Shown here: in pieces, positions 26,191-26,484 of the stretch
How positions within the stretch are numbered: position 1 is the stretch's first letter
How the letters are laid out: each line of letters starts with the position of its first letter
Assembly (NCBI RefSeq): GCF_000025665.1
Contig: NC_013926.1
Span: forward strand, 840,001-872,000
DNA length: 32,000 nt
From: Aciduliprofundum boonei T469
GTDB lineage: Archaea; Thermoplasmatota; Thermoplasmata; Thermoplasmatales; Aciduliprofundaceae
Reading direction: 5' to 3'
Notes under the pieces: model-generated
Databases searched by the model: none
What the model was told of the DNA's origin: nothing
Seen by the model: only the letters and a program-made list of their open reading frames with translations
Made by a program: the position numbers and the translations under genes

Positions 26191-26484
26191 GTGGTAAAAA
26201 TGTATGTGGTATTCAAATTCAAGGGTGAGGATGCGAAGATGAGAGAAATGTACCAAGATGATTTAGTTGGGAGGCAAACTATAATCAAGAGAGATGCTAA
26301 ATCTTTAGGATTAGACGGGAAAGAAGTGTATATAGTCGTTGAGGGCTCTTCTGATGCCATAGAGAGAGCAAAGGAGATTGCAGAGGATTTCATAATTAAG
26401 GGTGAAGAGGCGGGAAAGATATACAGGAAAATAAAAGAAAGCGAGGAAGAAGCATCCTTTGGTATGGGGGCAATATTCGGATGA
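26191..26484 (+). CDS. Hypothetical small protein ending in a ribosomal-stalk-like tail (…EEEASFGMGAIFG)
   Basis: 97 aa (94 aa if it starts at the ATG at 26200). The stop overlaps the nep1 start (ATGATG/TGA). I did not recognise the N-terminal ~80 aa. The C-terminal 13 aa align with the archaeal aP1/aP0 tail consensus [13 protein letters not shown]. Confidence 0.6.
   Translation: MVKMYVVFKFKGEDAKMREMYQDDLVGRQTIIKRDAKSLGLDGKEVYIVVEGSSDAIERAKEIAEDFIIKGEEAGKIYRKIKESEEEASFGMGAIFG

Follow-up and report, generated by a model that had tools for sequence, protein, structure and literature searches.

In the ribosomes of archaea and eukaryotes the C-terminal peptide of the stalk is a universal handle that recruits EF1A, EF2, IF5B and ABCE1. 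The tails of the eukaryotic stalk proteins P1/P2 also dock clients that are not GTPases, such as GCN2 and ribosome-inactivating proteins. In this work we describe a small protein from the archaeon Aciduliprofundum boonei T469 (DHVE2, Thermoplasmatota) that ends in a peptide of this type; on the sequence evidence, the docking peptide is a known one and the unannotated scaffold that carries it is new. Its gene lies in a stretch of 32,000 nucleotides, called the window in what follows, and all positions are numbered along the whole of it. Our literature searches found no account, from any domain of life, of the stalk peptide on a non-ribosomal protein.

The residues through which the peptide acts have been identified for the archaeal stalk protein aP1. 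G102, L103, L106 and F107 are required to bind aEF2, L103, L106 and F107 are required for aEF1A, aIF5B and ABCE1, and the substitutions G102S, L103S, L106S and F107S abolish factor binding, while the deletion of G108 is neutral for the binding of ABCE1 (PMC5887453, PMC6125642). The tail binds by the docking of an induced-fit helix (PMC6125642).

As a reference we used the Pyrococcus horikoshii aP1 peptide that was crystallised with aEF1A (PDB 3WY9, chain C). The last 14 residues of the small protein, SEEEASFGMGAIFG, share 9 of their 14 positions with it, in the same C-terminal register, with E84-A-S-F-G88-M89-G90-A91-I92-F93-G94 lying over aP1 E98-A-L-A-G102-L103-S104-A105-L106-F107-G108. G88, M89, I92 and F93 are thus the equivalents of G102, L103, L106 and F107, and all four positions are retained. 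They are also retained across the family to which the protein belongs, as G in 97% of members, M/F/V/L/I in about 98%, I/L/V in about 96% and F in 94%. A profile-profile alignment (hhalign) of the family with P. horikoshii aP1 covers the last 13 residues only, with 62% identity and a pairwise E-value of 0.013. Judged by its sequence, the small protein fits the motif definition of a stalk-type factor-binding peptide (‘L/GXXLF’), and it does so at the extreme C-terminus. A previous reading of the window, made from its letters and open reading frames (ORFs) and referred to here as the original prediction, had reported a position-for-position match of the tail to those of stalk proteins and had asked whether homologues keep it. 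The match holds, and they do.

The tail is the best-conserved part of the protein. Among 126 representatives at 50% identity the leading columns are G90 (98%), G88 and G49 (97% each), R25 (96%) and F93 (94%), followed by D21, D20, A57, G94, S27, Q26, A85 and E82, and the family consensus for the tail reads E-E-x-A-A-x-G-[M/F/V/L]-G-x-[I/L/V]-F-G. The pattern G.G..F lies at most four residues from the end in 133 of 150 representatives (50% identity); a further ten carry near variants, such as GFGNILG or SFGSIFG, and the few that remain without the motif look truncated or frameshifted, which leaves the tail in about 95%. This figure comes from the full-profile search, since the scan of genome contigs, which searched for the tail peptide, is blind to relatives that have no tail. 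After the Phe the family tolerates G, D or 0–4 extra residues, which matches the neutral loss of aP1 G108 in ABCE1 binding. The codons of the tail tell the same story within DHVE2, where most pairs of orthologues differ at 3–8 of about 9 synonymous sites versus 0–4 of about 33 non-synonymous sites.

The family itself is undescribed, widespread and archaeal, with members of about 95–100 residues. A single-sequence search found 14 relatives, and profile searches extended these to 309 and 517 clusters at 90% identity. A hidden Markov model (HMM) of the family, searched against 1.84 billion representatives, returned 304 proteins with E ≤ 1e-3, of which 168 reach E ≤ 1e-10 (representatives at 50% identity), nearly all of them 90–105 residues long and aligned from end to end. 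The taxonomic spread can be read from the minority of matches that carry names. These come from Thermoplasmata/Thermoplasmatota, including the cultured Thermogymnomonas acidicola, from Aenigmarchaeota, Methanocella and Methanoperedenaceae, and from some unclassified metagenome-assembled genomes (MAGs) of Euryarchaeota. Wherever a member is named its label is ‘hypothetical protein’, with the exception of one stray ‘Mg/Co/Ni transporter MgtE’. Searches with the small protein and 70 diverse family members found no relative by sequence in Pfam, NCBIfam or the PDB, and the family profile gave non-significant matches only against the PDB (e.g. ArgRS, E 0.47). Full-text literature searches, which included strings of the tail heptapeptide, found no description of the family. 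The original prediction, which did not recognise a described family here, was right in this respect. Weak matches to the Pfam families 4HB_MCP, KH-type and BofC_C were discarded, being below threshold and different from member to member. The ratio of non-synonymous to synonymous substitution rates (dN/dS) among DHVE2 orthologues is 0.05–0.24, and this strong purifying selection indicates that the gene is translated.

Some members depart from the usual architecture. In three tandem proteins of 175–194 residues (P0201, P0266 and P0267) the domain in front of the tail is duplicated and the tail is found on the last copy only. Four others (P0121, P0124, P0142 and P0192; 122–135 residues) have insertions of 25–40 residues between helix 2 and the C-terminal helix, and that of P0124 holds a CPSC motif.

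How close is the tail to those of genuine stalk proteins? We compared it with a metagenomic set that stands in for the aP1 and aP0 tails of A. boonei itself. This set was found with a pattern for the aP1 N-terminus (loci L047–L166), and comprises 108 complete aP1 genes, with 62 distinct tails, and 13 aP0 tails. One of the aP1 tails, in L138, is verbatim the example of a stalk tail quoted in the original prediction. The aP1 tails are nearly invariant, following the pattern G (62/62), L (61/62), [S/G/A], [A/S], L (62/62), F (62/62) and G (60/62); a single aP1, that of L050, ends in GISSLFG. The tails of aP0 from the same loci are looser, with GFGALFG, GIGGLFG, GLGNMFG and GLGDMFGD among them, and because aP0 carries F, I and M at these positions, such substitutions are compatible with stalk function. 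The invariance of the aP1 tail would be explained by its need to fit aEF1A, aEF2, aIF5B, ABCE1 and possibly more partners. The looser hydrophobic positions of the family may mean that its tail is adapted to a single groove instead of five, or that it serves a different partner. By its sequence, then, the family tail is clearly stalk-like, yet it constitutes a variant of its own, G-[MFV]-G-x-I-F-G, and is no recent copy of the stalk tail.

The likeness is closer than chance would give. Scored with a position-specific scoring matrix (PSSM) built from the 62 distinct aP1 tails, true aP1 tails reach 25–38 bits and the tail of the small protein +6.8 bits. The C-termini of 1,289 control ORFs have a median of -45 and a maximum of -8.6 bits, and shuffled family tails reach -3.6 bits at most. 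When all six frames were searched with the regular expression G[LMFIV][GSA].[LIMV]F[GD] close to a stop codon, the family gene was the sole match in 43 of 43 loci, and in about 1 Mb of archaeal DNA only the family and stalk proteins have ORFs that end in this way. A reverse search with the family HMM against 5,440 ORFs from 120 stalk-operon loci gave a best E-value of 5e-4. Those top matches whose alignments were inspected are all of stalk type (aP1 and fragments of aP0) and align through the C-terminus.

The body of the protein is predicted to be a compact domain. An AlphaFold2 model built from an alignment of 50 sequences has a mean predicted local distance difference test score (pLDDT) of 89 and a predicted template modelling score (pTM) of 0.78. 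It contains a strand (residues 2–7), a helix (12–19), two strands (27–32 and 43–48), a helix (51–60), a short strand and a long helix (69–92). The pLDDT sinks to 69 over residues 81–90 and to 46 over residues 91–94, which suggests that the tail is flexible. A polar motif, D20 D21 x3 R25 Q26 S/T27 ... R31 D32 ... E48 G49, runs through the body, where D21 and D20 are conserved in 88% and 87% of the 126 representatives. In the model, the conserved residues D20, D21, R25, Q26, S27, R31, E48 and G49 form a patch on the loops at one end of the sheet. This second conserved patch argues that the body is not a passive carrier of the tail. A structural search of the PDB with Foldseek gave only generic ferredoxin-like folds of the ACT/PII/CutA type, at E ≥ 0.04 and with TM-scores of at most 0.46.

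What could such a protein do? The reading that we favour, and which we put forward as possible but short of probable, is that of a soluble, non-ribosomal adaptor or regulator that binds a translation factor through the groove that receives the stalk tail. The tail would fold as a short amphipathic helix and dock in the hydrophobic groove of aEF1A, aEF2, aIF5B or ABCE1 that is normally offered to the C-termini of aP1 and aP0. That the tail terminates a long helix and is modelled with low confidence fits an induced-fit docking like that of aP1. At the same time the polar patch of the body would hold an adjacent surface of the same factor, in a bipartite grip. Three features favour such a grip. 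Only about 8 residues link the body to the tail, as against some 40 flexible ones in aP1; a conserved patch of its own marks the body; and the hydrophobic residues of the tail are less constrained than those of the stalk. The factor would then be held or escorted off the stalk, by a regulator or adaptor rather than by a general decoy for all factors. Three elements of this proposal are inferred: the nature of the partner (a stalk-binding translation factor), its identity among such factors, and the bipartite mode. In its most specific form the proposal amounts to a new class of archaeal regulator of translation, a soluble protein that would mimic the P-stalk tail, place its peptide in the groove of one translational GTPase or ABCE1 and clamp the same factor with its body; this we consider rather unlikely as a complete description.

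The gene and the features around it are collected in Table 1.

Table 1. Features of the small gene and of the adjoining nep1 gene, in window coordinates
Feature	Position	Strand	Evidence or remark
Putative promoter: BRE-like AGAAAG (purine-rich), then TATA-like box TTTAATTA	26155..26169	+	about 31-38 nt 5' of the ATG
Shine-Dalgarno-like GTGGTA	26191..26196	+	4-9 nt 5' of the ATG; includes the GTG taken as start in the ORF listing
Coding sequence of the 94-residue protein, stop included	26200..26484	+	an NCBI ‘hypothetical protein’ of Ca. Aciduliprofundum boonei has the same sequence (100% identity)
Predicted alpha/beta domain, residues 1-68, beta-alpha-beta-beta-alpha-beta, ferredoxin-like	26200..26403	+	AlphaFold2, pLDDT 90-96
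Residues 69-80, EEAGKIYRKIKE, predicted start of the long C-terminal helix, packed against the domain	26404..26439	+	AlphaFold2, pLDDT 94 for residues 61-80
Acidic run and stalk-like tail, residues 81-94	26440..26481	+	aligned with P. horikoshii aP1 95-108
Core motif G88-M89-G90-A91-I92-F93-G94	26461-26481	+	within the stalk-like tail
ATGA overlap: stop TGA 26482-26484, nep1 ATG 26481-26483	26481..26484	+	last sense codon GGA 26479-26481
nep1, 16S rRNA pseudouridine-N1 methyltransferase (SPOUT)	26481..27140	+	Pfam EMG1 PF03587, NCBIfam NF003207

The ORF listing gives the gene as 26191..26484 (+), 97 residues if read from a GTG, with the stalk-like C-terminus KESEEEASFGMGAIFG on which the original prediction was built. 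The ORF and its end are as described there, and only the length has to be corrected. The start is placed at ATG 26200, and GTG 26191 is rejected, since the homologues all begin with MY.. at this position and nine DHVE2 loci share signals just upstream of it. The consensus of archaeal B recognition elements (BRE) and TATA boxes is the basis for calling the more distant of these signals a putative promoter. Its TATA-like part occupies 26162-26169 and is preceded by AAA at 26157-26159, in the spacing AAA-N2-TTTAATTA; in the nine aligned loci the AAA, TT 26162-26163, A26165 and A26169 are invariant. In the Shine–Dalgarno-like site G26193 is invariant, and the more distant DHVE2 orthologues L005, L007, L008, L010 and L013 have GGTGA there. 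The 105-residue antisense ORF at 26172-26489 (- strand), which covers the whole of the small gene, is just the shadow cast by the conserved + frame, with nothing independent to support it.

The gene that follows is securely identified as nep1 (207 bits and E 2e-61 for PF03587, where the cutoff is 28.2; 333 bits for NF003207, where it is 250). The original prediction took the overlap of the two genes as a sign of coupling. The overlap is real and has the same ATGA geometry in 13 of 13 DHVE2 loci, but in the same scan nep1 is found in none of the 25 loci from other lineages, and the linkage is rejected as a rule for the family. Since it is confined to DHVE2, it gives no basis for a family-wide role in ribosome maturation. 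Within DHVE2 the small gene would head a two-gene unit with nep1, which points to lineage-specific co-expression rather than to a clue about function. On one side of this pair the window holds the divergent genes purS-purL-purQ, and on the other, on the same strand, nep1 is followed by genes for a class II ribonucleotide reductase (with an ATP-cone), SRP54 and a TrmY-like SPOUT methyltransferase. The last of these (30864-31433, + strand; PF04013, E 7e-50) begins on the stop codon of SRP54. The string from the small protein to TrmY thereby includes both of the archaeal pseudouridine-N1 methyltransferase paralogues.

Elsewhere the neighbours change from lineage to lineage. In Aenigmarchaeota the family gene lies 4–13 nt 3' of a gene for an RMKL-like (UPF0020) RNA methyltransferase, an enzyme of 338–342 residues that is unrelated to nep1 (L040:3972-4988 and L041:3969-4997), and about 1 kb downstream there is an 84-residue beta-barrel protein resembling GTP_EFTU_D2. 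In Thermoplasmatales it is followed after 2–7 nt by a gene for an ‘AdkA-like’ P-loop protein of the UPF0200/SSO1041 type, 177–182 residues long (L167:5296-5844, L168:5296-5844 and L169:5301-5834, from Thermogymnomonas acidicola and Thermoplasmataceae MAGs), and purQ adjoins this pair, as it lies near the gene in our window. We considered Fap7, a biogenesis factor of the small subunit, as the identity of this AAA_18 neighbour and rejected it, as the protein matches UPF0200/SSO1041 (PDB 3H0K and 3LW7, E 8e-26) and PRK08356, not PRK03839, which is the model for Fap7. A DUF362 gene is found upstream of the family gene in Methanocella, one contig of Methanoperedenaceae has it convergent with a Trp/Tyr-tRNA synthetase, and in many Thermoplasmata it stands alone among unrelated genes. 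On two unrelated Thermoplasmata contigs genes for beta-helix/NosD proteins with PKD domains (L044:1752-3836 and L046:1353-3422) lie directly upstream on the opposite strand. The window also encodes a large beta-helix/NosD surface protein with fn3 domains (10855-13284, + strand), and the proximity of such genes to the family is probably a coincidence.

Several other features of the window deserve a note for annotators. The tRNA genes for Arg-CCT (16330-16405) and Ala-TGC (20875-20950) are called by both ARAGORN and Rfam, and an 86-nt tRNA-Leu(GAG) at 20474-20559 (+) is called by ARAGORN while the Rfam tRNA model is silent at its gathering threshold. A + strand ORF at 20875-21162 overlaps the tRNA-Ala and is probably spurious. 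A gene for the RNA 2'-phosphotransferase Tpt1/KptA (20973-21860, - strand) ends about 23 nt from the tRNA-Ala, given as on the same strand; its domain covers residues 77–245 and an N-terminal extension of about 75 residues is unmatched.

A number of results weigh against a factor-binding adaptor, and many of them suit its main rival, a convergent C-terminal docking peptide with another partner, which might be a different protein, the domain of the same chain or a homo-oligomer interface. Any resemblance to the stalk would in that case reflect the general needs of a small amphipathic helix at a terminus. We regard this as a serious candidate, though on balance a doubtful one. The original prediction spoke of a copy of the stalk peptide, and what we find instead is a systematically different variant. 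The family departs from the stalk at both key Leu positions, with M/F/V and Ile in their place, and Gly is invariant in it at the position that the stalk fills with S/G/A. Leu itself occurs in 13% of representatives at the position of L103 and in 16% at that of L106. The family median in the aP1-tail PSSM is +0.8 bits, some 30 bits under true stalk tails, the probability that hhalign assigns to its alignment with aP1 is 3%, and searches with the tail only (phmmer with 26 residues, and a 24-column profile against the PDB) found no stalk protein at E ≤ 10. To judge from the sequences, the likeness is one of motif, below the level at which homology can be detected statistically. The neighbourhood has no consistent link to translation and leaves the function undefined, and no family gene was found near any of the 120 stalk operons. 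Furthermore, a single tail of low affinity would compete poorly with the seven tails on the ribosome unless the body added affinity. What speaks against convergence is that all four aP1 positions critical in mutagenesis, together with the preceding EEE-A, are kept in C-terminal register, that aP0 tails vary in the same directions (GFGALFG, GIGGLFG, GLGNMFG), and that nothing but the family and the stalk proteins ends in this way in the megabase examined. Docking to the proteasome, one conceivable alternative, is unlikely on motif grounds: the penultimate residue is Phe or Gly and never the Tyr of an HbYX motif, and 0–4 variable residues follow the Phe. A PIP box (there is no Q-x-x-[LIM]-x-x-[FY][FY]) and a GG end of the SAMP type are rejected on the same grounds.

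The same tail would also suit an undescribed, lineage-specific protein bound to the ribosome or its precursors, as an extra arm for recruiting factors or to bring aIF5B or ABCE1 to precursors of the small subunit. Coupling to the small-subunit biogenesis methyltransferase nep1 in DHVE2, the position directly 3' of an RNA methyltransferase gene in Aenigmarchaeota, the Arg and Gln in the conserved body patch, and a weak likeness to the fold of ribosomal protein S6 among the generic Foldseek matches all lean this way. The methyltransferase linkage is nevertheless confined to two clades and to unrelated enzymes, and in most lineages the neighbours have nothing to do with ribosomes. The protein has an excess of acidic residues (about 20 D/E versus 16 K/R, read from the sequence), its distribution is patchy and its genes are neither in nor near ribosomal protein operons, so that we think this improbable. 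A far less credible alternative would make the protein a degenerate copy of aP1 or aP0 that has kept the tail alone. The acidic run and tail are indeed collinear with aP1 over 13–14 residues, but this idea is effectively refuted. The stalk family PF00428 has no match in the small protein (E ≤ 1) or in 70 family members (E ≤ 0.01), hhalign aligns just the tail, the predicted alpha/beta fold is not the helical dimerisation domain of aP1, an Ala/Pro-rich hinge is missing, and the locus lies outside the L11-L1-P0-P1 context. The original prediction had likewise judged the body to be unlike aP1 and had named a stalk paralogue with an aP1-like fold as grounds for refutation; the missing PF00428 match and the predicted fold speak against such a paralogue. 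The ORF is short and the motif both short and of low complexity, which might suggest chance or a non-functional frame. Conservation refutes this most firmly of all: 304 representatives at 50% identity match over the full length, dN/dS is low among the DHVE2 orthologues, about 95% of representatives retain the tail, and the upstream promoter-like element and Shine–Dalgarno site are conserved as well.

If the favoured reading of a soluble factor-binding adaptor is true, cells would use the grooves of translation factors off the ribosome too, and the pool of factors would be subject to a layer of control that has yet to be explored. As a soluble mimic of the stalk tail, the protein could keep a factor away from the ribosome, for sequestration, hibernation or control of its nucleotide state, or deliver it to a site other than the stalk, such as the maturing small subunit. 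The family is small (about 95 residues), widespread and present in the cultured A. boonei, Thermogymnomonas acidicola and Methanocella, and the idea can be tested with published assays for peptide binding and for GTPase activity on hybrid ribosomes. Should the partner be a different one, this would still be a strongly conserved archaeal protein, unannotated and clearly equipped with a docking motif at its terminus, and one that merits the definition of a family.

Among known systems, domains of the ACT/PII/CutA type share the predicted topology of the body (TM-scores 0.38–0.46, E 0.04–0.3, which are non-significant matches); these families have no ligand-binding motifs in common with it and none of them carries a stalk-like tail. 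A more speculative analogy is with the exchange domain of aEF1B/eEF1B-alpha, a beta-alpha-beta-beta-alpha-beta unit of about 90 residues that engages a translational GTPase away from the ribosome. Unlike the small protein, aEF1B has no stalk-like tail; there is no match to the Pfam family EF1_GNE and aEF1B is absent from the top 50 Foldseek matches in the PDB, with no dedicated profile-profile comparison having been run.

With the tails of eukaryotic P1/P2 (EESDDDMGFGLFD) the tail of the small protein would share the principle of a short acidic and hydrophobic C-terminal peptide that is read by hydrophobic pockets of several different proteins. There, the peptide sits on the ribosome and its clients are soluble, whereas here it is the peptide that sits on a soluble protein, and the registers differ as well (GFGLFD versus GMGAIFG). 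The nearest counterpart is aP1, together with the C-terminus of aP0/uL10 (PF00428, Ribosomal_60s). In place of the N-terminal helical dimerisation domain of aP1 (MEYVYAALLLH...) the small protein has a predicted ferredoxin-like body, in place of the long Ala/Pro/Gly-rich hinge a continuous predicted helix (residues 69–92), and in place of the L11-L1-P0-P1 operon a locus among purS/purL/purQ, nep1, ribonucleotide reductase and SRP54. What the two have in common is an acidic run followed by a terminal G-Phi-x-x-Phi-F-G peptide, on a tail that is flexible and prone to form a helix, as is predicted for the small protein.

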